From NCBI GenBank assembly GCA_012551655.1, contig GCA_012551655.1_3034.1: 33,627 nucleotides of DNA. The stretch is one strand, 5' to 3'. The stretch's first letter is position 1; each line of letters starts with the position of its first letter. Positions 488-25,523 of the stretch are shown piece by piece. This DNA is from a phage. The translations under genes and the position numbers were made by a program. The notes under the pieces were generated by a model. It did no database searches, was not told the origin of the DNA, and saw only the letters and a list, made by a program, of their open reading frames with translations.

Positions 488-734
488 AAAGTTCAACTAC
501 CTCTTCGGTTTCAGCTTCAAACACATCACGGTTATCTTTATGATACAAAGCTAATAGACGATTAAACATCTTACCATCAACGCCAAGTTCATCTTTGGCA
601 CGAATTCGAATATCTTTAATCAGTTCATTATAACCGGAAATTTTCAGTTTATGATCAGATGCTTCTTTAATAAATTTAGCCAAGTCTTCGCCATGGATAG
701 CTTCATCAAATTCAACCATTTCTTTTTTAGCCAT
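465..734 (-). CDS. dsbA: DsbA double-stranded DNA-binding protein (89 aa)
   Basis: 89-aa ORF between rnh and 33, ATG at 734-732; size and position match T4 dsbA; overlaps 33 start by 23 nt. Confidence 0.75.
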   Translation of the reverse strand: MAKKEMVEFDEAIHGEDLAKFIKEASDHKLKISGYNELIKDIRIRAKDELGVDGKMFNRLLALYHKDNRDVFEAETEEVVELYDTVFSK

Positions 735-742
735 TATTCACC

Positions 743-1660
743 TCAAAATTCATTAATGCTATTAGTTAATTTAGAAAGACCCGCTTTTACAAAATATGAA
801 TAAATTTTGCCACGCGGTGGTAATTTATATGAATTATAGTAATTCACAATGTTTGAAGCAATATTATCAGGAATATAATCAAAATCAATTAGAACTAAAT
901 TTTCTTTATAACGATTATATTCAGATTCTGTGAGAAGCACCTTAGCTTGCTCACGGTCATTAGCAATAGCTTCAACGATTGAAGTTTTCATTGAAGGAGT
1001 TCGTTCACCTTCAACTCTAGTAAACCAAAAGTCAGATCGTACTTTAACTGAAGCAACGTTATCCTTTTTGTCGCCTTTAAGGATTTTAGTCATACAATCA
1101 ATTTCAGCAGAACCACTTTTAATTTTAACCCATTTCTTATGCATCGGTGACCATTGCTTAACATTTGGATATTTGTGAAGCTGAGTGAAGTCACCATCCG
1201 ATGAAATGATCAAAATCTTATGTCCTTCTAAAGAGAACTTTTTAACAAGAACAGCAATGTGGTCATCTGCTTCATACTTATCAATATCCATAACAATGTA
1301 TGGCATATAAGCTTTCAATTCATCTATAACTTTATGACTGGATTCAAAATAACCTTCCCAGTCCCAAGTAGATTCTTCTCGTGCTTTTCCACGGTTTTTC
1401 TTGTAATAATACGCGAAATCACGACGCCAGTATCCAGATTTCGCGTTATCAATACACAGTACAATTTTAGTGTATCCAAGCGTTTTTGCTTTTTTGACAT
1501 TAAACTTAATTGAGTTCAATATCAAATGACGAACCATTGATAAATTAATTTTTTCTTTATCTGGGAAGTTTACCAGAGCAGTTGAAAGCGCAATTTGACT
1601 AAAGTCAATAAAGCAAATTCCTTCTTTGTAATCTTCATCCAGCATCATTTCTAAATCCAT
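743..1660 (-). CDS. rnh: RNase H / 5'-3' exonuclease (305 aa)
   Basis: Track ORF 743..1675 begins with TTG; ATG at 1660-1658 gives MDLEMMLDEDYKEGICFIDFSQ..., the recalled T4 RNase H N-terminus and size. Confidence 0.9.
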   Translation of the reverse strand: MDLEMMLDEDYKEGICFIDFSQIALSTALVNFPDKEKINLSMVRHLILNSIKFNVKKAKTLGYTKIVLCIDNAKSGYWRRDFAYYYKKNRGKAREESTWDWEGYFESSHKVIDELKAYMPYIVMDIDKYEADDHIAVLVKKFSLEGHKILIISSDGDFTQLHKYPNVKQWSPMHKKWVKIKSGSAEIDCMTKILKGDKKDNVASVKVRSDFWFTRVEGERTPSMKTSIVEAIANDREQAKVLLTESEYNRYKENLVLIDFDYIPDNIASNIVNYYNSYKLPPRGKIYSYFVKAGLSKLTNSINEF

Positions 1661-1764: not shown

Positions 1765-4700
1765 ATGGCCGAGATTAAAAGAAAGTTCAGAGCAGAAGAT
1801 GGTCTGGACGCAGGTGGCGATAAAATAATCAACGTAGCTTTAGCTGATCGTGCCGTAGGAACTGACGGTGTTAACGTTGATTACTTAATTCAAGAAAACA
1901 CAGTTCAACAATACGATCCAACTCGTGGATATTTAAAAGATTTTGTAATCATTTATGATAACCGCTTTTGGGCTGCTATAAATGATATTCCAAAACCAGC
2001 AGGAGCTTTTAATAGCGTACGCTGGAGAGCGTTACGTACTGATGCAAACTGGACAACTGTTTCATCAGGACCTTATCAATTAAAATCGGGCGAATCAATT
2101 TCAGTTGATACTGCAGCTGGTAATGACATTACATTTACTTTACCATCTTCTCCAATTGATGGTGATACCATCGTTCTCCAAGATATTGGAGGAAAACCTG
2201 GAGTTAATCAAGTTTTAATTACAGCTCCGGTACAAAGCATTGTAAATTTTAGAGGTCAGCAAGTACGTTCAGTACTAATGACTCATCCAAAATCACAGAT
2301 AGTTTTAATTTTTAGTAATCGTCTGTGGCAAATGTATGTTGCTGATTATAGTAGAGAAGCTGTAGTTGTAACTCCTGCGAGTCTCTATCAGGCACAATCA
2401 AACGATTTTATCGTACGTAGATTTACTTCTGCTTCAGCAATTAATATTAAACTTCCAAGATTTGCCAATCATGGCGATATTATTAATTTCGTTGATTTGG
2501 ATAAATTAAATCCTCTTTATCACACAATTGTTACTACATATGATGAAACAACTTCAGTACAAGAAGTTGGAACTCATTCCATTGAAGGTCGTACATCGAT
2601 TGACGGTTTCTTGATGTTTGATGATAATGAGAAATTGTGGAGATTGTTTGACGGGGATAGTAAAGCACGTTTACGCATTATAACAACTAATTCTAATATT
2701 CGTCCAAACGAAGAAGTCATGGTATTTGGCGCGAATAATGGAACAACCCAAACAATTGAACTTCAGCTTCCGACTGATATTTCTGTTGGTGATACTGTCA
2801 AAATTTCCATGAATTACATGAGAAAAGGACAAACAGTTAAAATCAAAGCTGCCGGTGAAGATAAAATTGCTTCTTCAGTTCAATTGCTGCAATTTCCAAA
2901 ACGTTCAGAATACCCACCTGAAACTAAATGGGTGACTGTTCAAGAATTAGTTTTTAATGGTGAAACCAATTATGTTCCAGTTTTACAGCTTGCTTATATC
3001 GAAGATTCCGATGGAAAATATTGGGTTGTACAGCAAAACGTTCCAACTGTAGAAAGAGTAGATTCTTTAAATGATTCTACTAGAGCAAGATTAGGCGTAA
3101 TTGCTTTAGCTACACAAGCTCAAGCTAACGTCGATTTAGAAAATTCTCCACAAAAAGAATTAGCAATTACTCCAGAAACATTAGCTAACCGTACTGCTAC
3201 AGAAACTCGTAGAGGTATCGCAAGAATAGCAACTACTGCTCAAGTTAACCAGGATACTACATTCTCTTTTGCTGATGATATTATCATCACTCCTAAAAAG
3301 CTGAATGAAAGAACTGCTACTGAAACTCGCAGAGGTGTTGCTGAAATTGCTACGCAGCAAGAAACTAATGCAGGAACCGATGACACTACAATCATCACTC
3401 CTAAAAAGCTTCAAGCTCGTCAAGGTTCTGAATCATTATCTGGTATTGTAACTTTTGTATCTACTGCAGGTGCTACTCCAGCTTCTAGCCGTGAATTAAA
3501 TGGTACAAATGTTTATAATAAAAACACTAATAACTTAGTTGTTTCACCTAAAGCCTTGGATCAGTATAAAGCTACTCCAACACAGCAAGGTGCAGTAATT
3601 TTAGCAGTTGAAAGTGAAGTAATTGCTGGACAGAGTCAAGAAGGATGGGCAAATGCAGTTGTAACTCCAGAAACGTTACATAAAAAGACATCAACTGATG
3701 GAAGAATTGGTTTAATTGAAATTGCTACGCAAAGTGAAGTTAATACAGGAACTGATTATACTCGTGCAGTCACTCCTAAAACTTTAAATGACCGTAGAGC
3801 AACTGAAAGTTTAAGTGGTATAGCTGAAATTGCTACACAAGTTGAATTCGACGCAGGCGTCGACGATACTCGTATCTCTACACCATTAAAAATTAAAACC
3901 AGATTTAATAGTACTGATCGTACTTCTGTTGTTGCTCTATCTGGATTAGTTGAATCAGGAACTCTCTGGGACCATTATACCCTTAATATTCTTGAAGCAA
4001 ATGAGACACAACGTGGTACACTTCGTGTAGCTACACAGGTCGAAGCTGCTGCAGGAACATTAGATAATGTTTTAATAACTCCTAAAAAGCTTTTAGGTAC
4101 TAAATCTACTGAAGCGCAAGAAGGTGTTATTAAAGTTGCAACTCAGTCTGAAACTGTGACTGGAACGTCAACAAATACTGCTGTATCTCCAAAAAATTTA
4201 AAATGGATTGTGCAGAGTGAACCTACTTGGGCAGCAACTACTCTGATAAGAGGTTTTGTTAAAACTTCATCTGGTTCAATTACGTTCGTTGGTAATGATA
4301 CAGTAGGTTCAACACAGCCATTAGAATCATATGAGAAAAATGGTTATGCAGTATCACCATATGAATTAAACCGTGTATTAGCAAATTATTTGCCGTTAAA
4401 AGCAAAAGCTGCTGATACAAATTTATTGGATGGTCTAGATTCATCTCAGTTCATTCGTAGGGATATTGCGCAGACAGTTAATGGTTCACTAACCTTAACC
4501 CAACAAACGAATCTGAGTGCCCCTCTTGTATCATCTAGTACTGCTACGTTCGGTGGATCAGTTTCAGCAAATAGTACATTAACTATTTCTAATACTGGAA
4601 CAGCAACTCGATTGATTTTTGAGAAAGGACCTCAAACTGGAACAAACCCAGCCCAAACGATGACTGTTAGAGTGTGGGGTAATCAATTTAGTGGGGAATC

Positions 4701-7488: not shown

Positions 7489-10400
7489 ATGGCTACTTTA
7501 AAACAAATACAATTTAAAAGAAGCAAAACTGCAGGAGCACGTCCTGCCGCTTCAGTATTAGCCGAAGGTGAATTGGCTATAAACTTAAAAGACCGTGTAC
7601 TTTTTACTAAAGATGACCAAGGAAATATTATTGATCTGGGTTTTGCTAAAGGCGGTAGTATTGACGGGAATGTTATTCATACAGGCAATTATAACCAAAC
7701 TGGCGATTATACTTTAAATGGCGTCTTCACTCAGACTGGTAATTTTAATTTAACTGGTATTGCTCGAGTAACTCGCGATATTATTGCCGCTGGGCAGATT
7801 ATGACTGAAGGCGGAGAACTTATTACAAAAAGTTCAGGTACAGCGCATGTTCGTTTTTTCGATAACAATAGTCGCGAACGCGGAATCATTTATGCCCCGG
7901 CTAATGATGGTTTAACTACACAAGTACTTAATATCAGGGTTCAAGACTACGCCGCTGGTAGCGAAAGCACTTATGCATTTTCAGGCAGTGGACTATTTAC
8001 TTCACCTGAAGTATCAGCATGGAAATCTATTTCGTCTCCACAAATTCTGACCAACAAAGTCATTACTAATAATAAATCTACGGGTGATTATGACATTTAT
8101 TCGATGGCAGACAATGTTCCACTGTCTGAAAGCACTACTGCTATTAATCATCTACGTGTCATGCGCAATGCAGTCGGTTCTGGTATTTTCCATGAAGTTA
8201 AAGATAATGATGGAATAACTTGGTATAGTGGAGATGGATTAGATGCTTATCTTTGGTCATTTACCTGGAGCGGCGGAATTAAATCAAGTCACTCAATTTC
8301 TATCGGTTTAACACCCGGTAATAAAGATTATTCAATATTAGGACCATCTAGCATTGCTTTAGGAGATAATGATACTGGATTTAAATGGCATCAAGACGGA
8401 TATTATTTCAGCGTTAATAATGGCACAAAAACGTTTTTATTTAGCCCTAGCGAAACAACTAGCCTAAGAAAATTTGTAGCTGGATATTCTACTAATGGAA
8501 CCGATTTAACTACTCCTCCAACTGAAAACTATGCTCTTGCTACTGTTGTGACATATCACGATAATAACGCGTTTGGAGATGGTCAGACTCTTTTGGGATA
8601 TTATCAAGGTGGTAATTATCATCATTATTTCCGCGGCAAGGGTACTACAAACATTAATACTCATGGCGGTTTGTTGGTTACTCCTGGTAATATTGACGTT
8701 ATTGGCGGTTCTGTAAATATAGATGGCCGTAATAATGCTTCTATACTGATGTTTAGAGGTAACACAACTGGTAGTAGCTCAGTTGATAATATGACAATTT
8801 CCGCGTGGGGTAATACTTTTACTAATCCTAGTGAAGGTACCCGTAAAAATGTCATGGAAATTTCTGATGCAACTAGCTGGATGAGCTATATTCAAAGACT
8901 TACTACTGGTGAAGTAGAAATGAACGTTAACGGTTCATTTGAATCATCTGGTGTTACTGCTGGAAATAGAGGAGTTCACACAACAGGCGAAATTTCATCT
9001 GGTGCAGTGAATGCTCTTCGTATTTGGAACGCAGATTATGGAGCCATTTTTAGACGTTCAGAAGGAAGTCTTCATATTATTCCAACTGCTTACGGTGAAG
9101 GTAAACACGGCGATATTGGTCCACTTCGCCCATTTAGTATGGCTTTAGATACTGGTAAAGTTACTATTCCAGATTTACAATCAAGTTACAATACGTTCGC
9201 TGCTAACGGTTATATTAAATTTGTTGGTCATGGAGCGGGTGCCGGCGGTTATGACATTCAATATGCTCAAGCGGCTCCTATTTTCCAGGAAATTGATGAT
9301 GATGCTGTAAGCAAATATTATCCTATTGTTAAACAGAAGTTTTTAAATGGTAAAGCCGTTTGGTCTTTAGGTACTGAAATTAATTCGGGTACATTCGTTA
9401 TTCATCATCTGAAAGAAGATGGATCACAGGGCCATACATCAAGATTTAATGCTGATGGTACAGTTAATTTCCCTGATAATGTTCTGGTCGGTGGTGGTGA
9501 AGCTGCTATTGCTCGTAATGGTAATATTTTCTCGGATATTTGGAAAACGTTTACTTCTGCAGGCGACGTAACTAATATTCGCGATGCAATAGCTACTCGT
9601 GTTGCCAAAGAAGGTGATACGATGACCGGCACTCTTTGGATTAATAAAGATGCTGCTGGAATAGTTCTTAATCCTCCTTTGGCCAGTGATTCATCATTTA
9701 TTCGTTCCGATACGGCCGGGGTCAATAATTGGTATATTGGTAAAGGCGGTGCCGACAATGGTCTAGGTTTTTACAGTTATGTTACACAAGGCGGTGTATA
9801 TATAACAAATAACGGAGAAATATCACTTTCTCCTCAAGGCCAAGGAACATTTAATTTTAATAGAGACCGCCTCCATATAAACGGTACACAATGGACCGCA
9901 CACCAGGGAGGTGGTTGGGGAAATCAATGGAATCAAGAAGCACCGGTATTTGTAGATTTTGGTAATGTTGGTAATGATAGTTATTATCCTATTATTAAAG
10001 GAAAATCCGGTATTACTAATGAAGGATACATATCTGGTGTAGATTTTGGTATGCGACGCATTACTAATACATGGGCACAAGGTATTATTCGTGTAGGTAA
10101 TCAGGAAAACGGTTACGACCCACAAGCTGTATATGAATTCCATCATAACGGTACTTTTTATGCTCCAAGCTTACTTAAGAGCAGTAGAGTATCAGCTGGT
10201 GGTGGTGACCCTGCATGGGGCGGGCCGTGTATTGTACTTGGAGATAACGATACCGGTTTGCTTTGGGAAAACGATGGTATTTTCAACGCATATGCAAACG
10301 GCCAAGGTGTGTTTAGTTTTAGACCTGGTTTAGCTCAGACATTCGGTGATGTTAACTTCCACTGTAATGCAGGTATGTATGTTCGTGATAACATTGATGT

Positions 10401-10740
10401 TAACGACGTTTATATTCGTTCTGATATTCGTTGTAAGTCGGAAATTAAGCTTATTAAGAACGCTCAAGAGAAATCTAAACTATTGGGCGGTTATACTTAT
10501 CTGCTTAAAAACTCTGTTACAGACGAAGTTAAACCGTCCGCAGGTTTAATTGCTCAGGAAGTTCAAGAAGTATTACCTGAACTTGTTTCTGAAGATAAAG
10601 AGACCGGACTGCTTCGTTTGAACTATAACGGTATTATTGGTTTAAATACAGCTGCAATAAACGAGCATACAGATGAAATCAAGGAATTGAAATCTGAAAT
10701 TGCCGAATTGAAAGCATTAATTAAATCATTGATAAAATAA
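7489..10740 (+). CDS. 37: Long tail fiber distal subunit gp37 (1083 aa) with C-terminal intramolecular-chaperone-like domain
   Basis: Large ORF after 36, N-terminus [39 protein letters not shown] typical of gp37; C-terminal ~120 aa ([10 protein letters not shown]...[15 protein letters not shown]...coiled coil) resembles auto-cleaved fiber chaperone domains. Confidence 0.95.
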   Translation: [1083 protein letters not shown]

Positions 10741-10745
10741 TAAAA

Positions 10746-10759
10746 GGGCCTTCGGGCCC
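10746..10759 (+). other. GGGCC-UUCG-GGCCC RNA hairpin at the 37-38 junction (no U-tract)
   Basis: Perfect 5-bp GC stem with UUCG tetraloop 6 nt after the 37 stop, followed by SD ggagg and the 38 ATG. Confidence 0.5.
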
Positions 10760-10770
10760 TGGAGGTTTAT

Positions 10771-11550
10771 ATGGCAGTAGTAGGAATCCCTGGTTGGATT
10801 GGGACTTCAGCCGTTGCTGAAACGGGACAAAGATGGATGACGGCTGCTTCAAGGGAACTTCGTTTAGGAAACCCTTCATGGATGTCCCAATTCGCGGGCC
10901 GTTCAAGAGAAATAATTCACACACTTGGAGCAGACCATAACTTCAATGGTCAATGGTTCCGAGATAGATGTTTTGAGGCAGGTAGTGCACCTATAGTGTT
11001 TAATATCACCGGAAATTTGGTATCATATAGTAAAGATGTTCCATTATTCTTTATGTATGGCGATACGCCAAATGAATATGTTACTTTGAATATTCATGGC
11101 GGAGTTCATATGTGGGGACGAGGTGGTAACGGTACTGTAAACGGAAACCCAGGCACTAATGGTGGCGATGTAATCCAAAATGATATCGGCGGAAGACTTC
11201 GTATTTGGAACTATGGCGTTATTGCATCAGGCGGTGGCGGTGGTGGTGCAGTGTCATTACAGAATAGCTGGGCACCAAATGCTACAGCAGGTGGCGGTGG
11301 TGGTAGACCGTTTGGCATCGGCGGAGGCGGCGTTAATTGGCCGGGTGGTAATGCTAGTTATGACGCGCCCGGCGGTGCCGGTTACACTTCCCAATTCGGC
11401 GGAGGCAATGGCGGTGATGCTGGAGGTCGGGGTGGAGATGGATGGGGTAATCACTTATCTAGATCCGGCGGTGGTGCTCCAGGTAGAGCGGTATTCGGTT
11501 CTTCACCATCATGGGGTGCAACAGGCACGATCTACGGTTCCTGGATTTAA
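10771..11550 (+). CDS. 38: gp38 receptor-binding adhesin of the T2/T6 type (259 aa, glycine-rich motifs)
   Basis: N-terminus [23 protein letters not shown]... and C-terminal half with poly-glycine blocks ([43 protein letters not shown]) as in T2-type gp38; the T4-type gp38 is a 183-aa chaperone. Confidence 0.9.
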
Positions 11551-11569
11551 ATGGTAATACCTCTCAGCA

Positions 11570-11577
11570 TATAAATA
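11570..11577 (+). promoter_or_regulatory. Late promoter for holin gene t
   Basis: TATAAATA 19 nt upstream of the t ATG; SD aaggagg. Confidence 0.7.
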
Positions 11578-15077: not shown

Positions 15078-15293
15078 TTAGATTGATAGGTCTTTAATCT
15101 TAGCTATTAAAACAGCTTTTCCTTCACGAAGTTTTTCCAGTTTACGACCATTAGAGCCGCGAACTACTAAGGAATTTATCTCCACTTCCAACCAATTTAG
15201 TTTTTCAACTAGTTCTTTACGTTTAGCATTCATGCCGGGTTTAACTTTACCGAAACGGGTGGTAGCGTTTTGAGTATTTTTCATCTTATTCAT
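15078..15293 (-). CDS. Hypothetical basic 71-aa protein
   Basis: ATG at 15293 with GGAGA SD, downstream of an early promoter; K/R-rich. Confidence 0.55.
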   Translation of the reverse strand: MNKMKNTQNATTRFGKVKPGMNAKRKELVEKLNWLEVEINSLVVRGSNGRKLEKLREGKAVLIAKIKDLSI

Positions 15294-15423: not shown

Positions 15424-15573
15424 TTACTGCATGACTGTGATAACTGTCATGATAACACGTTGAATTCCGAACGCAAGAAGACCTCCTGCTACGGCTGGAA
15501 CAACGCCTAAACCTGCCAGTAAAATGCTACCAGATACTAATGCAGCGCTTGTAATACCTATGAATGGACTCAT
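15424..15573 (-). CDS. Hypothetical 49-aa hydrophobic (Gly/Ala-rich) membrane peptide, 52.1-like position
   Basis: ATG at 15573 overlaps the gene 52 stop (ATGA); MSPFIGITSAALVSGSILLAGLGVVPAVAGGLLAFGIQRVIMTVITVMQ; not in the ORF track. Confidence 0.45.
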   Translation of the reverse strand: MSPFIGITSAALVSGSILLAGLGVVPAVAGGLLAFGIQRVIMTVITVMQ

Positions 15574-16898
15574 TTGATTTCCTCTAAATCTTTGGTGTAT
15601 TCTGTAACTACATCAGTAGTTTTCCAATATTCGTTTTCTTCTTTTTTAGCTTTAGCTTCTTCAGCAAGTTTCTTCGCTTCATCGGAAGTCATATGAAAAA
15701 TATTCATTCCAACTAGTTTATCAACATAAGAAGAATACATATCGATTTTCGAAAGTTCTTCGGTCAGTTCTTTACGAGTTTTACCCTGTACAACAATTTC
15801 ACCTGAAATTACTTTCTTAATGAAATGTGCCTTGGCAAAGGCTAAACGAAAAGCAGATTCAGTTTCTTTAATTTTGTTATCAATTCGTTTTTGGACATAA
15901 GTTTTACGAACTTCAACAAAGTCTTTAATTAAATCAACTACGTTATCGTAAACTTGTAGTTTTCCTTTCTCATTAATAACCGTAATATTCTGAGAACGAC
16001 GCTCAATCAACCCGAAGTCTTTCATAATTTTTGCATGACGTTCTTCTTCATTATCGCTCAAAGAATATTCTTTGCGGAATTTAACTTTGAATCCAAAACC
16101 ATGCTCACCACAAGCATCATCCCATGTAATGAAGCCTTTATCTTCAAGTGGGTCTAAGATTTTACTCACATAAGTTTCACGATCATACTTATACGGAATC
16201 TCAGTGATATGCATTTGAGTTCGTGAAGTAAACTTATATGTTCCACGAATTTCATATTGCCCATCAATTTCAACGACTTCACCGCGAAATTCTGGGAATT
16301 CTACCTTCGGTTTAGTTACTTTCTTTCCTTGAAGAGCTTGCAGTACAGCTTTCTTAACAGAAGAAACACTATGAGGAAGAATGTAAGTTGCATAACCAGT
16401 TGCAATACCGGAAACGCCATTAAGAAGAACAGTAGGAATAATAGGCAAATAGAAAGCAGGCGGAATGTGTTCTTTATCTTGATGTACCGGAGCATATTCA
16501 GTATCTTTATATACGTTATAGAAATTTTTACTTACACGAGCAAAAATATAACGACTTGCTGCTGCTTTTTGAACGGTACGAGAACCAAAGTTTCCTTGAC
16601 CATCTAACAGAGGAAAGTTATTATTCCAAGTATTAGCCATCAAAGCACCTGCATCTTGTGCAGAGTTTTCGCCATGGTGATATCCAAGGTCTGCTACACC
16701 ACCTGCAATAGAAGCGAGTTTGTGAAACTTATCTTTATTTCCTCGTGCCAAATCAAGAGCTCGAGCAATAACAAATCGTTGAACTGGCTTAAATCCATCA
16801 ATCATATTTGGAATGGCACGATTTTCAACCGTGTACATAGCATAAGCCAATGCTTCATTATCAATGATACTTTTTAAATCGCGATTATTCAGTTGCAT
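15570..16898 (-). CDS. 52: DNA topoisomerase II medium subunit gp52 (GyrA-like, 442 aa)
   Basis: 442 aa as T4 gp52; AAASRYIF active-site-Tyr-like motif; position downstream of ac/stp and upstream of motA. Confidence 0.9.
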   Translation of the reverse strand: MQLNNRDLKSIIDNEALAYAMYTVENRAIPNMIDGFKPVQRFVIARALDLARGNKDKFHKLASIAGGVADLGYHHGENSAQDAGALMANTWNNNFPLLDGQGNFGSRTVQKAAASRYIFARVSKNFYNVYKDTEYAPVHQDKEHIPPAFYLPIIPTVLLNGVSGIATGYATYILPHSVSSVKKAVLQALQGKKVTKPKVEFPEFRGEVVEIDGQYEIRGTYKFTSRTQMHITEIPYKYDRETYVSKILDPLEDKGFITWDDACGEHGFGFKVKFRKEYSLSDNEEERHAKIMKDFGLIERRSQNITVINEKGKLQVYDNVVDLIKDFVEVRKTYVQKRIDNKIKETESAFRLAFAKAHFIKKVISGEIVVQGKTRKELTEELSKIDMYSSYVDKLVGMNIFHMTSDEAKKLAEEAKAKKEENEYWKTTDVVTEYTKDLEEIK

Positions 16899-16902
16899 AA
16901 AT

Positions 16903-17043
16903 TTACCATACTAGTGAATGTAGTGCCATAATAACATCAGAAATGAAAAGCACGACTTGAATTAATCCGAACATTATTCCGTGATATAACGCTACCAATA
17001 AAGTAGCAAGGGCTAGTGAATAGCCCAAGATTTTCTTAATCAT
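16903..17043 (-). CDS. Hypothetical 46-aa hydrophobic membrane peptide immediately upstream of 52
   Basis: MIKKILGYSLALATLLVALYHGIMFGLIQVVLFISDVIMALHSLVW; stop 4 nt before the 52 ATG (52 has no good SD, so coupling is plausible); own SD weak. Confidence 0.4.
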   Translation of the reverse strand: MIKKILGYSLALATLLVALYHGIMFGLIQVVLFISDVIMALHSLVW

Positions 17044-17194
17044 TAGTAGATAACAACACAAATGTTAAATATGCACACATACCCTGGGCTAAAGCTTGTG
17101 AAAACACACTGCTAGCATCGATACAGATAGTTAAAACACATGCTACTATCCAACAAATAAATGAAATAACTCCTAATAATTTTGCGATATTCAT
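17036..17194 (-). CDS. Ac-like small membrane protein, copy 1 (52 aa)
   Basis: Track ORF 17036..17224 trimmed to ATG at 17194 with GAGGAG SD; MNIAKLLGVISFICWIVACVLTICIDASSVFSQALAQGMCAYLTFVLLSTND; size and position of T4 ac. Confidence 0.55.
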   Translation of the reverse strand: MNIAKLLGVISFICWIVACVLTICIDASSVFSQALAQGMCAYLTFVLLSTND

Positions 17195-17204
17195 AATATT
17201 CTCC

Positions 17205-17360
17205 TCAACTATTTTTAGAACCAATGTACGCGAATAATGATAAAATCGCTAATACGCCCTGAGCAGATGCTTGCAAAAATACTGAAGTTTCTCCAGTTAT
17301 TACTGTTCCGATGCATAAAAAGAACCAACAGAAAAAGGCTATACCGTGAACAAGTTTCAT
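17205..17360 (-). CDS. Ac-like small membrane protein, copy 2 (51 aa), paralog of copy 1
   Basis: ATG at 17360 with GAGGA SD; MKLVHGIAFFCWFFLCIGTVITGETSVFLQASAQGVLAILSLFAYIGSKNS; shares F-x-CW...SVF-Q-A-AQG pattern with copy 1; not in the ORF track. Confidence 0.55.
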   Translation of the reverse strand: MKLVHGIAFFCWFFLCIGTVITGETSVFLQASAQGVLAILSLFAYIGSKNS

Positions 17361-17367
17361 ATTTTCC

Positions 17368-17448
17368 TCACTGGCGTCCGAAGACGCCTTTAGTTTTAAG
17401 ATTGTTACGATAGAACTGCATCACATGTTCGTTATGGAAATTACTCAT
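17368..17448 (-). CDS. stp: Stp peptide (26 aa)
   Basis: Reverse translation gives [26 protein letters not shown], which I recognise as T4 Stp; ATG overlaps the ndd stop by 1 nt; 3' end contains a GGCGUC-UUCG-GACGCC hairpin. Confidence 0.8.
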
Positions 17449-17906
17449 TAATATGCCTGCAAAACAAATTTAAAGTTATCAGCCAACATACGGTTCATTT
17501 CTTCAAGTGTTTGATACTCAGAATGATGATTACGAGTAAACGCCAAAGCTAACTGACCTTTACCAAATCCCGTCGTCAGAGGTTTCATCTTAGAAGCAGG
17601 CAGATAAAATACTGTGTATGGAACATTGTTATTTGCAATAGTACGCGCAAGCTGAGACCGACGCTGACGAATATGACTTAGAACCGCACTGAATCCTTGC
17701 TTAGAACGCTGATTACCTACATAAAATCGTGCAGACACGCACGGATTACTAAATGGACGACCATCTAATTTACACACTAAAAAGTAAAATCCAGGTTTAG
17801 ATAAAATATCTTTGTGTGGAGTTCCCAAAAACCACTCACCGTTCTTGATTGTACCAATAACGGTAGCGCCTGCATTATTCAGATCAGTAACAGTCATATA
17901 TTTCAT
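17448..17906 (-). CDS. ndd: Ndd nucleoid disruption protein (151 aa)
   Basis: Track ORF 17448..17954 trimmed to ATG at 17906 (GAGGA SD): [21 protein letters not shown]... matches recalled T4 Ndd. Confidence 0.85.
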
Positions 17907-18190: not shown

Positions 18191-18301
18191 TCAAGGAGTA
18201 TAAAATCCAAATGCAGTTGTTGACCATCCCATCCAATATGGGAAATTTGCACCAATGTAAAACATAAGAATATAAAACCAACCGCTCAGCAAATTCATCA
18301 T
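18191..18301 (-). CDS. Hypothetical 36-aa hydrophobic peptide
   Basis: MMNLLSGWFYILMFYIGANFPYWMGWSTTAFGFYTP; ATG overlaps the upstream stop (ATGA). Confidence 0.3.
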   Translation of the reverse strand: MMNLLSGWFYILMFYIGANFPYWMGWSTTAFGFYTP

Positions 18302-18495
18302 TTTACACCGTTCCAAATTGTTTCAACCACAGATTTTAAACCATTTTGATGAATATCCATTCCGACTACTGCCATCAAATAGATTCCAACTACAACTGAA
18401 CCTAAGGCAAAAATCAGCATGAAAATGAATAAAGCCGGAAAAATATTATCGAAAAACCATTCAATAAATGTAAAAGCACTGCGTTTACGCTTCAT
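18298..18495 (-). CDS. Hypothetical 65-aa membrane protein
   Basis: Track ORF 18298..18516 starts at TTG; ATG at 18495 with GAGGA SD gives MKRKRSAFTFIEWFFDNIFPALFIFMLIFALGSVVVGIYLMAVVG... Confidence 0.5.
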   Translation of the reverse strand: MKRKRSAFTFIEWFFDNIFPALFIFMLIFALGSVVVGIYLMAVVGMDIHQNGLKSVVETIWNGVK

Positions 18496-18502
18496 ATTTT
18501 CC

Positions 18503-18616
18503 TCACATAAATCCAAAGTAAACGTTTAATACATCAATCATTAAAACGATTGGGAATATACTCAAAACTATTAGTATTATAACTACATTCCATATAGCTT
18601 TAATAATCTTTTTCAT
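18503..18616 (-). CDS. Hypothetical 37-aa membrane peptide
   Basis: ATG at 18616 directly after promoter leader and SD GGAGGA: MKKIIKAIWNVVIILIVLSIFPIVLMIDVLNVYFGFM; the 82-aa track ORF is an N-terminal over-extension across the promoter. Confidence 0.45.
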   Translation of the reverse strand: MKKIIKAIWNVVIILIVLSIFPIVLMIDVLNVYFGFM

Positions 18617-18644
18617 TTTCTGTTCCTCCGTAGTTGATAGGGTA

Positions 18645-18674
18645 ATAGTACCACGGAAGAACAGTCTTGTAAAC
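18645..18674 (-). promoter_or_regulatory. T4-type early promoter
   Basis: GTTTAC (18674-18669), 18 bp, TACTAT (18650-18645), leader tatcaactacggagga. Confidence 0.5.
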
Positions 18675-18681
18675 AACTTTT

Positions 18682-18780
18682 TTAAAAATATTCGTAATAA
18701 ATGTGAATACCAACTACTACCGCTGAAACCTGTGCAACCCACCACGCACAAGCAATAAGTACAGAATTCAAAATTTTCAT
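18682..18780 (-). CDS. Hypothetical 32-aa hydrophobic peptide
   Basis: MKILNSVLIACAWWVAQVSAVVVGIHIYYEYF; ATG overlaps stop of the upstream 28-aa ORF (ATGA). Confidence 0.3.
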   Translation of the reverse strand: MKILNSVLIACAWWVAQVSAVVVGIHIYYEYF

Positions 18781-18863
18781 AATAACCTCATCACAAAAGT
18801 AAATGTTAAACAAATTACTGGAATACTAATTAACCAAACGAAACACCACCATAATGAACTCAT
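18777..18863 (-). CDS. Hypothetical 28-aa hydrophobic peptide
   Basis: MSSLWWCFVWLISIPVICLTFTFVMRLL; ATG overlaps stop of the upstream 87-aa ORF (ATGA). Confidence 0.3.
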   Translation of the reverse strand: MSSLWWCFVWLISIPVICLTFTFVMRLL

Positions 18864-19123
18864 AGTTCAATCTCAGCGATTTTCATTTCATTACTATTAA
18901 TAGCCTCTTTAAGACTATCTGAAAGAATTACATTCCAGTGGTCATTCATATGACCATTAACTAAGCGTGTAATTTCTTCAGGAGTTGAAAAATAAGGCTG
19001 ATCAGACTCCCAATGCGATAATTCTAAGCGAGTATAAATCATGCCTTCATCATCGCTAGAATATTCAACTGACACAAACTCATCAGTTATTTTATGTTTA
19101 GCGTAATAAAATTTAAATTTCAT
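18860..19123 (-). CDS. Hypothetical 87-aa protein
   Basis: Track ORF 18860..19216 trimmed to ATG at 19123 after SD GGAGGAG: MKFKFYYAKHKITDEFVSVEYSSDDEGMIYTRLELSHWESDQPYF... Confidence 0.55.
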   Translation of the reverse strand: MKFKFYYAKHKITDEFVSVEYSSDDEGMIYTRLELSHWESDQPYFSTPEEITRLVNGHMNDHWNVILSDSLKEAINSNEMKIAEIEL

Positions 19124-19149
19124 TTTTACTCCTCCGTAGCTGATAGTTG

Positions 19150-19179
19150 TATAGTACCACGGTCCTTGTGGTATGTAAA
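19150..19179 (-). promoter_or_regulatory. T4-type early promoter
   Basis: GTTTAC (19179-19174), 18 bp, TACTAT (19155-19150), leader tatcagctacggaggag. Confidence 0.5.
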
Positions 19180-19197
19180 CCATTTTGTGAAATTTTT

Positions 19198-19755
19198 TTA
19201 AATGGAAAGATACCATCCGTTGTAGTTGCTTTTTCTTACAACCTTACGAAGGTCTTCTCTGTCACCGATGAACTTCGGAGTGTACTGGATGACACCTGGA
19301 TGAATTTCTTTAGTGTTGAATATAATTATACAGTCAGCGACTTGATGATTTAGAATGGGCCCTAGATTTATTCCAGAACCATATGGATACTCTCCGCTGC
19401 ATCCTGTTGTTACCGAAATCCAACGTGAGTCAGTTTGATGTGTCTTAACTTCTACACGAAGCCCGCAGTATCTTGGATGCGCCAATACATCCCATGCGTA
19501 TGTATACGGGTCATTAACATCCTCTTGGCCTTTATTGACATATCCGCTTAGCCAATCTGCTACAAAAAATTCTGCGTACACAGCAATACGGCATCTTTCG
19601 ATAACTTCTGCCTTATCCTGATTTGGGTTTTGTTTTAAAGAGTATCTTGCAGTATTAGCAATTTTGACCTTCATTTCACTAGTCAAGTCACTGTTCGATA
19701 GGGTAAATGTCGGAATCTGAAATAGTCTCTGTAGCCCCGGATTCGTTTTCTGCAT
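19198..19755 (-). CDS. denB: Endonuclease IV DenB (185 aa)
   Basis: 185 aa as T4 DenB; AGGAAAG SD before ATG at 19755; position between ndd cluster and rIIB. Confidence 0.75.
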   Translation of the reverse strand: MQKTNPGLQRLFQIPTFTLSNSDLTSEMKVKIANTARYSLKQNPNQDKAEVIERCRIAVYAEFFVADWLSGYVNKGQEDVNDPYTYAWDVLAHPRYCGLRVEVKTHQTDSRWISVTTGCSGEYPYGSGINLGPILNHQVADCIIIFNTKEIHPGVIQYTPKFIGDREDLRKVVRKSNYNGWYLSI

Positions 19756-20017
19756 TTAAACTTTCCTTTTTACCGCTGAGATAAGCGTTATACACTTTAA
19801 GAGTACCGTAGTAAATTCGGTCATTTTCATCTAAAGACACACGGTCAAGTTCATCAAGTTCCTTTTTATCCATGACTATAACATCATTGCAATAAAGAAA
19901 CCCAAGTTTTTCGTGACCAAACTCAAATTTATTACAGTACACAATATTAGCGTGATGATTTCCATGCAGTTTAATCTCTTTTATGTCGGAATCACCGATA
20001 TTCATACAATAAATCAT
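19688..20017 (-). CDS. Hypothetical 109-aa protein; 3' end overlaps denB by 68 nt
   Basis: ATG at 20017 with aaggaaaa SD directly after a terminator-like hairpin; acidic low-complexity C-terminal tail. Confidence 0.5.
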   Translation of the reverse strand: MIYCMNIGDSDIKEIKLHGNHHANIVYCNKFEFGHEKLGFLYCNDVIVMDKKELDELDRVSLDENDRIYYGTLKVYNAYLSGKKESLNAENESGATETISDSDIYPIEQ

Positions 20018-23649: not shown

Positions 23650-23679
23650 ATTATACCACATCCTTGTGGTAAAGTAAAC
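23650..23679 (-). promoter_or_regulatory. T4-type early promoter for rIIA.1-rIIA, overlapping the 3' end of gene 39
   Basis: GTTTAC (23679-23674), 18 bp, TATAAT (23655-23650). Confidence 0.55.
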
Positions 23680-25496
23680 TACTGGCTCATCCATTCTTTA
23701 CGAAGGTCAGCATTATCTCCCATGAGCATTTCAAAAAGCTCTTTCCAGTTCTCAGGAAGTTTAACAACATCATATACTGGATTTTGAATCATCTCACGAT
23801 ATTCAGATTTTTCCAAAGAGCCAAGTCCTTTAATATAACGGATGCTATGTTTAGGTAGAGCATCTTTGGCACTCTCATATTCAGCGACTGTATAAAACCA
23901 TTCTTGTTTTTTACCGACCTGAGCGATGATTACAGGAGTTTTGACAAAGCGAATTCGTCCTTGCTCAAACAATTCTGGCCAATTACTAAAAAATCCAAGC
24001 AGAGAAGGATAAATGCTTCCTAGACCATCATGGTCAGCATCAGTCATAATAGCAATATTATGATAATTCAAGTTTTCAGCTTTTTCACCGAGAACTAATC
24101 CAGTGATTGCGCAAATATCAAATAGTTCTTTGTTTTTAAGCATATCAGCATATGACATACCCCAACTATTAAGAACTTTACCACGCAATGGATAACCACC
24201 ATGAAGTTCTTTATCACGAACATCAATAAGATATCCGATAGCCGAATCACCCTCAGTCAAGAAAAGAGTCGTGTCAGCATCTTTACCACAAAGATTCGCT
24301 TTAATATGTTTATGAACCTTAGCTTTAGAAGCCTTTTTAGCTGCTTTTGTTTCTGCTGCTTTTTCTGCTGCCAATTTACGAGCCAAAGCAGCTTCAATAA
24401 TCGGCATTAGAATTGCTTCATTATTTAGAATAGCACGTGAAATCTTTTTAGCATCAAGCTGAATATGACTACGGATTTCACCAAATGGAGAAGTCAAACG
24501 CTCTTTAGTTTGAGAATCAAATCGCATGTTTTTCATATCACGAACAAACATAACGATAGTCAAACATTCTTTAACACGTGCTTTAGTTACATCAATTTTG
24601 AATTTACGTTTGATTTGTGGAATAAGGTCTTCACAAATATCATCCATAACACAGTCAATGTGATGGCCACCATTCTTAGTGTGAATGTTATTCACATAAG
24701 TTAATTGACGAAATCCATCCGGTGAACGACCAACCGCAATAGAACAATTTTCTTGTTCTTGAACAATAGCATGTTCATCATACTGTCGTGCATATTTCTT
24801 AAAATTACCCTGAACCTTTTTACCATTAAAGGTAAATTGAATATCAGGATAAACAACAGCAAGTGTCTGGAGACGATCTAGTGTAATGTCAAGATAAACT
24901 TGGGACAGCTCATTAGTTTCAAATGACATAAAATCAGGAATGAAAGTAACACGAGTTCCTTTCCATTTTCCTGGAATAGTTTCCCATGATTTATTTTCCA
25001 TGCCATTTGAACAACGAACTACAATATTATTTTGACCATCGCCAGTTTCACCAACAAACATCACAGAAAAAATGTTAGTTAAACTAGAACCAACACCGTT
25101 CATACCGCCGGTGACGCGTTCTTTATCATCACCGAAGTTACCACCTGCTTTTGGAATAGTCCATGCAGCAACAGGACCAGGAATTTCTTCACCGGTAGGT
25201 GTTTTAACCATCGCTTGTGGAATACCGCGACCGTTATCTTCAACTGTTACTTGATTGTTTTTAATAGTAACGTTAATTTTATTTGCGAATTTAAACTTAG
25301 TACGAATACCTTCATCTACTGAGTTATCGATAATTTCATCAATAAGCTTAACAAGACCAGGTACATACTGAACACTTTCCCATTTACCAAACAGAAAGCG
25401 CTCATGCATTTCATTAGCAGAAGAACCAATGTACATGCCGCTACGCTTTTTGATATGTTCAATATCGCTCAGAATTTTAATTTCATTCTTAATCAT
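23679..25496 (-). CDS. 39: DNA topoisomerase II large subunit gp39, unsplit (605 aa; GyrB-like ATPase plus Toprim)
   Basis: Track ORF begins at GTG; ATG at 25496 with GAGGA SD. Motifs EIIDNSVDE and DNGRGIP (GHKL ATPase), EGDSA and DADHDG (Toprim). Single continuous ORF. Confidence 0.9.
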   Translation of the reverse strand: MIKNEIKILSDIEHIKKRSGMYIGSSANEMHERFLFGKWESVQYVPGLVKLIDEIIDNSVDEGIRTKFKFANKINVTIKNNQVTVEDNGRGIPQAMVKTPTGEEIPGPVAAWTIPKAGGNFGDDKERVTGGMNGVGSSLTNIFSVMFVGETGDGQNNIVVRCSNGMENKSWETIPGKWKGTRVTFIPDFMSFETNELSQVYLDITLDRLQTLAVVYPDIQFTFNGKKVQGNFKKYARQYDEHAIVQEQENCSIAVGRSPDGFRQLTYVNNIHTKNGGHHIDCVMDDICEDLIPQIKRKFKIDVTKARVKECLTIVMFVRDMKNMRFDSQTKERLTSPFGEIRSHIQLDAKKISRAILNNEAILMPIIEAALARKLAAEKAAETKAAKKASKAKVHKHIKANLCGKDADTTLFLTEGDSAIGYLIDVRDKELHGGYPLRGKVLNSWGMSYADMLKNKELFDICAITGLVLGEKAENLNYHNIAIMTDADHDGLGSIYPSLLGFFSNWPELFEQGRIRFVKTPVIIAQVGKKQEWFYTVAEYESAKDALPKHSIRYIKGLGSLEKSEYREMIQNPVYDVVKLPENWKELFEMLMGDNADLRKEWMSQ

Positions 25497-25523
25497 CACT
25501 TATCCTCGTTTGGTTTCGGGAAT

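Follow-up and report, generated by a model that had tools for sequence, protein, structure and literature searches.

Two divergent Ac-family genes stacked between stp and gene 52.1 in a T4-type phage

Ac is a genetic marker 60 years old. In a 33,627-nucleotide stretch of phage DNA (the window; GenBank assembly GCA_012551655.1) two Ac-like reading frames stand side by side, and the locus raises the question of how a second one came to be there and whether it works. The original prediction had picked out three small ORFs at this place, and all three are found there on the minus strand. It had also credited T4 with a single ac gene, correctly: in the same position T4 (NC_000866) carries 52.1, just one ac, and stp. 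T4 therefore does not encode both Ac-like peptides, because it lacks ac1. The DNA missing from T4 is precisely the segment that runs from the ac1 ATG up to the ac2 leader, and the flanks of the tandem are 96-97% identical to T4 DNA.

The ndd-52 interval and its junctions

On the minus strand, where all features described here lie, the interval reads ndd, stp, ac1, ac2, 52.1, 52, a chain of tightly abutting ORFs. The upstream end is ndd (nucleoid disruption protein; 17448..17906), assigned from its ORF, synteny and the annotation in T4 and ADUt. Its stop overlaps the ATG of stp (TAATG). The stp gene (17368..17448) encodes a 26-aa peptide that activates PrrC, the anticodon nuclease of the host, and its product is identical to T4 Stp (PF08133 at 75.3 bits, gathering cut-off 25; phrog_6763). 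It is followed by ac1 (17205..17360), which has no counterpart in T4, by ac2 (17036..17194), by gene 52.1 (16903..17043) and by gene 52 (15570..16898), which encodes the DNA topoisomerase II medium subunit, as assigned from its ORF and synteny with T4. The interval is very probably the cluster of small genes that a phage of the T4 type (Tequatrovirus) has between ndd and 52, here with a type-B and a type-A ac gene stacked in it, both with a probable Ac-like function.

A Shine-Dalgarno (SD) sequence of its own had been proposed for each of the two ac ORFs, and both are present: GAGGAAAAT-ATG for ac1 and GAGGAGAATATT-ATG for ac2, at -6.5 and -9.3 kcal/mol against the anti-SD, respectively. The ac1 leader (17361..17367) is identical to the T4 ac leader. 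When the stp stop is included the sequence is TGAGGAAAAT-ATG, and the TGA of that stop forms part of the ac1 SD. The ac1/ac2 junction (17195..17204), including the ac1 stop, reads AAAAAT|AGTTGAGGAGAATATT-ATG and is a second, diverged copy of this leader. For comparison, T4 has CC|AGTGAGGAAAAT-ATG and the RB51 trailer is AAAAAT|GATTAAG.

The third ORF is, as predicted, a separate hydrophobic micro-ORF in tight coupling with gene 52. It is not new, being already known as T4 gene 52.1. The 46-aa peptide (MIKKILGYSL...HSLVW) is 93% identical to T4 gp52.1 (phrog_3595), with the same position and the same coupling to ac and 52, and DUF7396 (PF24129) covers residues 1-46 of 46 (77.6 bits, cut-off 27, E 7.7e-22). 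Across genera, 52.1 peptides show 83% mean column identity and 21 invariant positions. Homology of 52.1 to Ac was considered and ruled out (hhalign probability 0.2%). The gene has no SD (+0.9 kcal/mol). Its start and the ac2 end share 8 nt (ATGATTAA), which is the same overlap as between ac and 52.1 in T4, and its stop lies 4 nt ahead of the gene 52 ATG, where the SD is weak (-2.8 kcal/mol). The chain from ndd to 52 is probably translationally coupled, and this arrangement suggests that coupling to 52.1 probably accounts for the translation of gene 52. Gene 52.1 would encode a conserved membrane peptide unrelated to Ac, and its translation probably feeds ribosomes into gene 52.

At the RNA level, the 281-nt fold of the interval is unremarkable (z -0.77) and only a local C(UUCG)G tetraloop hairpin (GGCGTC-TTCG-GACGCC; 17373..17388) stands out. 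It was read from the sequence and is present in both MFE and centroid folds. The hairpin lies within the last stp codons, 3 nt before the ac leader, and is invariant in T4, RB51, RB33, wV7 and UPEC01. No Rfam family matched the interval at E up to 1. A sigma-70 promoter scan of the region returned 17 sites against 16.7 expected from shuffles, and the only promoter-like hexamer pair between stp and 52.1 is one weak 9/12 match. Neither a MotA-box middle promoter nor a late-promoter motif was found between ndd and 52.

The small-ORF regions of T4-type genomes are reportedly plastic, with modules shuffled by PeSLs. The interval resembles such regions in that conserved genes are separated by a variable number of very small ORFs, most of them for membrane peptides, and in recurrent insertion at one slot with short flanking motifs repeated. 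However, the repeated motifs of the window are translational junctions (the stop-in-SD leader and the ATGATTAA overlap), with no promoter-like site between the ORFs. A PeSL mobile cassette, which combines an early promoter with a stem-loop, was considered and rejected: the hairpin does precede the ac leader, but without an adjoining sigma-70-type promoter.

One family, two types

The original prediction had seen a shared pattern in the two ORFs of about 51 aa and called them Ac-like membrane peptides, and the comparison bears this out. The peptides are MKLVHGIAFFCW...SKNS for ac1 (51 aa) and MNIAKLLGVISFICW...STND for ac2 (52 aa from the ATG). BLASTP aligns them with 18/40 identities (45% over 40 aa, E 2e-10; 41% in the identity matrix), and each matches the phrog_2501 profile end to end (ac1 E 6e-26, residues 1-50 on profile positions 1-50; ac2 E 3.7e-25). 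All 15 aligned family members, ac1 and ac2 among them, have the residues W, T, V, Q and QG without variation. Both carry the Ac motif, which consists of a W in helix 1, a T, and, where helix 2 begins, [ST]-V-[FI]-x-Q-x-x-[AS]-Q-G; ac1 G35 aligns with G38 of T4 Ac. Both lie where the family is located, on the early-gene strand with stp/ndd on one side and 52.1/52 on the other. Both also fall within its length of 47-52 aa and are predicted to have two hydrophobic helices with a short polar turn, according to hydropathy and charge for the two peptides and AlphaFold2 for ac1 (helices 2-22 and 25-50, pLDDT 76 from a shallow alignment of 8 sequences). On this evidence ac1 and ac2 are true homologues.

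The T4 acridine sensitivity protein Ac (NP_049877, annotated as "acridine resistance protein", 51 aa) has its orthologue in ac2. The two genes differ by one synonymous and no non-synonymous change, plus one inserted Thr codon before the C-terminal ND. The 52-aa sequence is present at 99% identity or more in 330/463 records. This type A (T4-type) is divergent and almost confined to T4-type phages (460/463 tblastn hits at 80% identity or more). In contrast, ac1 shares with T4 Ac the profile, the length, the predicted hairpin and the W...T...SVFxQAxAQG motif, but is only 40-41% identical to it, has the loop TGETS instead of IDASS, ends in KNS and does not overlap 52.1.

The closer relatives of ac1 are of type B. 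This type is the sole ac in RB51-, RB33- and wV7-like Tequatroviruses and in Gaprivervirus, Mosigvirus and Jiaodavirus phages. A B-type gene lies between stp/ndd and 52.1 in RB51, RB33, wV7, UPEC01, REP4, ESh15, F2 and KP179. The ac1 product is 70-90% identical to type-B members from Tequatrovirus (including the single-copy ac of RB51, RB33, wV7 and UPEC01) and Gaprivervirus, vs 47-53% for those from Mosigvirus and Jiaodavirus. Single-copy type-B genes (RB51, RB68, RB33, RB32, wV7, UPEC01, Mosigvirus, Jiaodavirus) have the same leader after stp as ac1. They stand alone and end in ...ND and a stop over the 52.1 start codon, whereas the 3' junction of ac1 is a hybrid and another Ac gene comes next. 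Types A and B normally share one slot, from the stp leader with its stop in the SD to the ATGATTAA overlap with 52.1.

Neither the Pfam copy searched nor NCBIfam returned an Ac match for the peptides of the window. In newer Pfam releases PF26944 (Ac) is precomputed for two close type-B relatives (P0004 and P0007). A word-indexed search for the family returned 7 proteins, and a full HMM scan of 1.84 billion representatives gave 8 matches at E <=0.001; with so few matches, the Ac family is tiny. Two of the HMM matches, local ones within proteins of 859 and 2254 aa, were not counted as members. An IMG/VR scan gave four loci, all of them type-A-only, and a match on a high-GC contig (L016) was discarded as spurious.

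The idea that these might be unannotated peptides does not survive comparison with public genomes. The ac1 gene together with the junction is present in 51 public Tequatrovirus records (about 9% of records), and a search with a sequence spanning both types gave 576 places in 526 records. The label "acridine resistance" is already attached to both genes in several tandem carriers, among them Aplg8, ADUt, Geo, TB37 and JLBYU22. In many public records ac1, ac2 or 52.1 is uncalled or "hypothetical", and PST labels ac1 alone as ac. The literature searched contains no mention of two ac genes or of an ac paralogue. The tandem is thus real but ordinary, since about 50 public genomes share the layout and several are already annotated.

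Origin of the tandem

Duplication, the other explanation offered by the original prediction, turns out to be a misleading term. Synonymous sites between ac1 and ac2 are saturated (dS about 2.6) and ac1 falls with the ac genes that stand single in RB51, RB33 and wV7 (70-90%), not with its own neighbour (41%). These values indicate that the window stacks two old allelic types and not the products of a fresh duplication. The stop-in-SD leader recurs at the junction, which points to illegitimate recombination at the cassette slot. A type-B and a type-A cassette would have been put together by recombination, illegitimate or unequal, involving the 3' trailer of one (AAAAAT|GATTAA) and the 5' leader of the other (|AGTGAGGAAAATATG). 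This event may have left the hybrid junction and given ac1 its new C-terminus, KNS in place of KND. The junction similarities involved are short (about 12-15 nt with three differences) and undatable. In REP4 an independent stacking is found at the same slot, where an unrelated 53-aa membrane ORF is accompanied by longer copies of the trailer and leader.

Two other histories were weighed against this one. A tandem duplication of ac that took place recently and in situ, with the copies diverging afterwards within this phage lineage, would explain why the genes are adjacent, have the same orientation and size, and each follow a similar stop-in-SD leader. It is nevertheless extremely improbable: the copies are only 41-45% identical while their surroundings are 96-97% identical to T4, each copy has a close counterpart in the single ac of other phages (type-B members for ac1, T4 Ac for ac2, which adds one Thr), and type-B genes occur alone in other genera. 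Alternatively, the tandem (B then A) could be ancestral in Tequatrovirus, with T4-like phages having lost B and RB51-like phages A through leader/trailer deletion. The stretch missing in T4 would fit a leader-to-leader deletion, and many named phages whose hosts are Escherichia, Shigella, Yersinia and Citrobacter carry the tandem. However, phages of the outgroup genera Gaprivervirus, Mosigvirus and Jiaodavirus have just one B-type gene, the end of which forms the ATGATTAA overlap with 52.1, and the single-B state therefore looks ancestral. In the tandem, ac1 lacks that trailer and has the hybrid end instead, carriers are a small minority of records, and REP4 demonstrates that stacking does occur at this slot. 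An ancestral tandem is thus unlikely, and the joining of two old cassettes remains the preferred history.

Function of the Ac peptides

Loss of ac serves as an acriflavine-resistance selection in T4. The same use is described in bioRxiv 10.1101/2025.06.30.662393, where deletion of T4 ac gave resistant phage, Ac expression sensitised E. coli to acriflavine, and the G38R change, which inactivates Ac, conferred acriflavine resistance. Spontaneous resistant T4 plaques were reported there at about 2e6 per 1e10 PFU. An ESMFold model in the same work gives T4 Ac the same two-helix picture. Its proposal that Ac blocks AcrAB-TolC comes from the phenotype and the predicted fold, and is repeated in PMC13250531. 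Acridine sensitivity has been tied genetically to type A only (T4, T2, PP01).

The ac1 and ac2 products are predicted to be two-helix inner-membrane hairpins with both termini inside, as judged from a positive-inside pattern. A conserved polar stripe would mark the start of helix 2 (S26/Q30/Q34-G35 in ac1, S29/Q33/Q37-G38 in ac2). Both peptides probably act like T4 Ac: made early and inserted into the inner membrane, they would raise the intracellular level of acridines or similar hydrophobic cations. Blocking of AcrAB-TolC efflux is the sole current mechanistic proposal, and an oligomeric leak would be an alternative. Small membrane proteins of the AcrZ type bind the AcrB efflux pump, AcrZ being a host-encoded single helix. 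The likeness to Ac is a functional analogy: an inner-membrane helical peptide of about 50 aa, with Ac proposed to modulate AcrAB-TolC. Neither sequence nor fold searches related Ac to AcrZ: the Ac profile had no match at E up to 1 among PDB chain sequences, and Foldseek found nothing significant in the PDB (the best hit was a sensory-rhodopsin transducer hairpin, E 9.3).

The conservation of ac1 suggests that the gene probably encodes a functional membrane hairpin of two helices, similar to Ac. Among the matches listed, the ORF is full-length and 96-100% identical at the amino acid level in tandem carriers, with 48 records at 95% or more; the exception is BCH953P4, where it aligns in two pieces. 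Against five orthologues its dN/dS is 0.27-0.46. Within the tandem clade substitutions are too few for a measurement of selection (one synonymous and one non-synonymous difference from ADUt). A silent or decaying passenger ORF without its own function would agree with the absence of ac1 from most Tequatroviruses, and with the survival of T4, at about 50% yield, after loss of the whole 52.1-denB region (PMC6071114). It would not be expected to remain full-length, to keep a good SD at the correct spacing, to show such dN/dS values or to retain all family-invariant residues, including the G38 equivalent, and this reading is very unlikely. It is also improbable that the micro-ORFs are mainly a translational-coupling relay which brings ribosomes to the weak-SD gene 52, with the peptides secondary. 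The junctions do have the anatomy of such a relay: the stp and ac1 stops each lie inside the next SD, the SD-less 52.1 overlaps ac2, gene 52 begins just past the 52.1 stop, and promoter-like signals inside the interval are not above chance. However, the peptides themselves are conserved across genera (the columns of 52.1, the invariant motif of Ac), dN/dS is below 1, and the phenotype of ac point mutations is unrelated to topoisomerase. The preferred reading includes probable Ac-like activity of both peptides as well as probable coupling, and the junctions illustrate neatly, on a small scale, how micro-ORFs are stacked in T4-type genomes while coupling to the essential downstream gene stays intact.

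Carrying both types may widen or strengthen the natural benefit of Ac. A further possibility, on balance doubtful, is that the types are non-redundant and have different host inner-membrane targets (e.g. different RND pumps, or pump variants of different enterobacterial hosts) or form a hetero-oligomer. In that case the slot between stp and 52.1 would be a site primed for recombination, at which T4-type phages mix such effectors via the stop-in-SD leader and the ATGATTAA trailer. If this is true, ac-based acriflavine selection would fail or differ in the roughly 9% of Tequatroviruses that have both genes.

The significance of the tandem is modest. If ac1 is functional, a two-copy phage may need both genes removed for acriflavine-resistance selection. 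The phages also form a natural comparison set of A only (T4, T2, T6), B only (RB51, RB33, wV7) and both (ECML-134, PST, the BASEL phage FriedrichZschokke, MZ501067, and the window), which can serve the search for the host target of Ac and the testing of the AcrAB-TolC hypothesis.

Gene order between ndd and gene 52

The window is a T4-type phage: with 88-98% identity it matches phage T4 from roughly position 149,045, across the genome ends, up to 12,563. Six genes lie on its minus strand in the order ndd (17906..17448, 152 aa), stp (17448..17368, 26 aa, the canonical anticodon-nuclease activator, PF08133), ac1 (17360..17205, 51 aa, MKLVHGIAFFCWFFLCIGTVITGETSVFLQASAQGVLAILSLFAYIGSKNS), ac2 (17194..17036, 52 aa, MNIAKLLGVISFICWIVACVLTICIDASSVFSQALAQGMCAYLTFVLLSTND), 52.1 (17043..16903, 46 aa, MIKKILGYSLALATLLVALYHGIMFGLIQVVLFISDVIMALHSLVW) and gene 52 (16898..15570, 442 aa), and the ORF map agrees with the original prediction in coordinates and description. 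They are arranged as a relay. The ndd stop overlaps the stp ATG (TAATG), the Shine-Dalgarno (SD) sequence of ac1 includes the stp TGA (TGAGGAAAAT-ATG, -6.5 kcal/mol for the duplex with anti-SD) and that of ac2 includes the ac1 TGA (TGAGGAGAATATT-ATG, -9.3 kcal/mol). 52.1 lacks an SD sequence (+0.9), and its start codon lies within the end of ac2 (ATGATTAA, 8-nt overlap); its stop is separated by 4 nt from gene 52, the SD sequence of which is weak (-2.8).

At this site T4 is annotated with 52, 52.1 (46 aa), ac (51 aa), stp and ndd. T4 Ac is the orthologue of ac2, which differs by a single synonymous change and an additional Thr codon. T4 lacks ac1, as expected from the prediction that it has one ac, and its ac directly follows stp with a leader identical to the ac1 leader of the window. 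T4 gp52.1 is 93% identical to the window protein, so the third micro-ORF is a known T4 gene. It falls in a family of its own (Pfam DUF7396, 77.6 bits, cut-off 27; phrog_3595), and profile comparison detected no similarity to Ac.

The last stp codons hold a C(UUCG)G tetraloop hairpin (GGCGTC-TTCG-GACGCC, 17373..17388, minus strand), with the ac leader 3 nt downstream. It is invariant across T4, RB51, RB33, wV7 and UPEC01 despite differing neighbouring codons; read on the plus strand, it has a T-run behind it and a terminator-like score. Many further very hydrophobic micro-ORFs of 28-82 aa, motA.1 and ndd.2-ndd.6-like, are found nearby (15424..15573 and 18298..18863, minus strand), making the motA-denB stretch a membrane-peptide-rich zone, in agreement with the T4 annotation.

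The topoisomerase II large subunit is a single 606-aa ORF (23679..25499, minus strand), whereas in T4 it is split into 39/60 with 60.1, mobA and a 50-nt translational bypass, all absent here (T4 2793-3911 unmatched). Segments without a T4 counterpart surround a 71-aa basic ORF (MNKMKNTQNATTRFGKVKPG...; 15078..15293, minus strand; ~300 nt) between motA and motA.1 and a 118-aa ORF (18860..19216, minus strand; ~240 nt) between the ndd.x micro-ORFs and denB, and another of ~200 nt lies beyond denB (19769..19965). The distal tail-fibre/adhesin region (genes 37/38, 7655..11570) had no T4 match by blastn; the receptor-binding module is therefore different from that of T4.

Two types of ac and the origin of the tandem

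ac1 and ac2 share 18/40 identities (BLASTP, E 2e-10), and each is matched end to end by one phage family profile, phrog_2501 (6e-26 and 3.7e-25), a likeness beyond chance. The Ac family is tiny: 1.84 billion representatives yielded 8 matches at E up to 0.001, and two of these, local matches in long proteins, were not counted as members. Rfam, PDB sequence and fold, NCBIfam and promoter searches found nothing.

In the other loci compared, the single ac gene occurs in two very different forms in one slot. Type A, the T4 form, was detected by tblastn in 463 records (460 at at least 80% identity, 330 at at least 99%). Type B is found in Tequatrovirus (RB51, RB33, wV7, REP4), UPEC01 (Gaprivervirus), ESh15 (Mosigvirus), F2 (same sequence type as ESh15), KP179 (classified in Jiaodavirus) and Roth20. 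ac1 shares 70-90% identity with the type-B genes of Tequatrovirus and Gaprivervirus but just 41% with its neighbour ac2; ac1/ac2 synonymous divergence is saturated (dS about 2.6), and the flanks are 96-97% identical to T4. The original observation thus stands and the pair are Ac-like homologues, but they are two allelic types and not a fresh duplication, so the interpretation first offered, a possible duplication or unannotated peptides, is supported in part.

In single-copy ac genes, whether type A or type B, the 3' end reads ...AAT GAT TAA and contains the 52.1 start codon, and their leaders read ...(C)AGTGAGGAAAAT ATG or ...TAATGAGGAAAAT ATG. At the end of ac1 the window reads AAAAAT followed by AGTTGAGGAGAATATT ATG: the ac1/ac2 junction joins six bases from the start of the type-B trailer to a slightly altered leader copy. 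This hybrid probably arose through unequal or illegitimate exchange between a type-B and a type-A genome; the trailer-leader exchange would also be why ac1 terminates in KNS instead of KND. An ancestral tandem followed by differential loss is improbable, and the tandem is regarded as derived, given that outgroup genera carry just one ac gene, of type B and with its trailer intact.

In REP4, an unrelated 53-aa membrane ORF (710..871 of its locus, L010) precedes a longer copy of the trailer (AAAAATGATTAAGAAATCC); after six further bases come a copy of the leader (TAATGAGGAAATTATG) and type-B ac, an arrangement whose sequence shows a probable second, independent event in the same slot. 101117BS1 has the tandem and a further 57-aa membrane ORF between ndd and stp (L019 892..1065), related to an ORF in the Klebsiella phages KP179/Roth20. 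The junction and these insertions together mark the ndd-52 interval as a relay-preserving stacking site for small membrane ORFs. KP179 also has a small hydrophobic ORF of 51 aa here (L007 755..910), and the inserted ORFs of all three phages are joined to their neighbours through overlapping start and stop codons. In UPEC01 the annotated 52-aa ORF corresponds to Stp extended at its N terminus by a hydrophobic stretch, perhaps through a miscalled start.

Conservation and predicted action of ac1

Several features bear on whether ac1 is a real gene, its SD sequence being one. In the tandem-carrying records listed, the alignment spans all of ac1 with 96-100% amino-acid identity; in BCH953P4 it is in two pieces. 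Against five type-B orthologues its dN/dS is 0.27-0.46, with too few changes within the tandem clade for a direct estimate of selection. It keeps all invariants of a 15-member family alignment: the helix-1 W, a Thr, and the V, Q and Q-G of the motif [ST]VFxQxx[AS]QG. An internal 7-bp hairpin (ACTGGAG-AAA-CTTCAGT then ATTTTT, 17281..17297, minus strand) covers the conserved TGETSVFLQ codons and is kept in type-B genes of other phages; it may be an RNA signal or merely the protein motif.

AlphaFold2 with a small family alignment modelled ac1 as helices 2-22 and 25-50 with G-E between (pLDDT 76), in agreement with the ESMFold hairpin reported for T4 Ac (bioRxiv 10.1101/2025.06.30.662393). Judged by the charges (K2, E24 in the turn, K49), both termini would be cytoplasmic and the turn periplasmic. 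Three invariant polar residues, S26, Q30 and Q34, recur at i, i+4, i+8, with G35 next, and would line a single face of helix 2 near its periplasmic end. A G38R change at the T4 equivalent of G35 abolishes function, T4 with ac deleted or point-mutated grows on acriflavine, and plasmid-expressed Ac sensitises E. coli by ~3 logs; the authors of that work propose that Ac blocks AcrAB-TolC rather than raising uptake (bioRxiv 10.1101/2025.06.30.662393), repeated as an assumption in PMC13250531. The T4 52.1-denB block is dispensable as a whole, and its deletion abolishes post-infection stimulation of phospholipid synthesis (PMC6071114). ac1 and ac2 would be early inner-membrane hairpins whose helix-2 polar face may bind a host membrane protein or self-associate. 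Ac-like activity of ac1 is fairly probable; AcrB as the target is a tentative suggestion.

Distribution and annotation of the tandem

The metagenomic Ac-family sequence P0009 falls between the two types and as a tblastn query detects both, in 576 places in 526 records, which implies two Ac-family genes in some 50 records; T2 and T6 each have a single one, type A. By megablast, the 651-nt region matched 567 records, 51 with full coverage, and a 181-nt probe over ac1 and the junction returned the same 51 (94-99% identity), some of which are GenBank and RefSeq versions of the same phage. Both genes are labelled "acridine resistance" in Aplg8, ADUt, Geo, TB37, EL, JLBYU22, ESh29, ESh33, 101117BS1 and T4_ev151. 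In other tandem records one gene is uncalled or the genes are labelled hypothetical, and PST gives the ac name only to ac1. No mention of a second copy was found in the searchable literature, including the 2025 preprint on T4 Ac, the survey of which has only matches with 93-100% nucleotide identity (bioRxiv 10.1101/2025.06.30.662393). The tandem is therefore already in public annotation, though undiscussed. As a gene-content polymorphism it is of a known kind and lies in a region known to be plastic; ~50 public genomes have it, partly annotated, and what interest remains lies in its use as a natural experiment for learning what Ac does.
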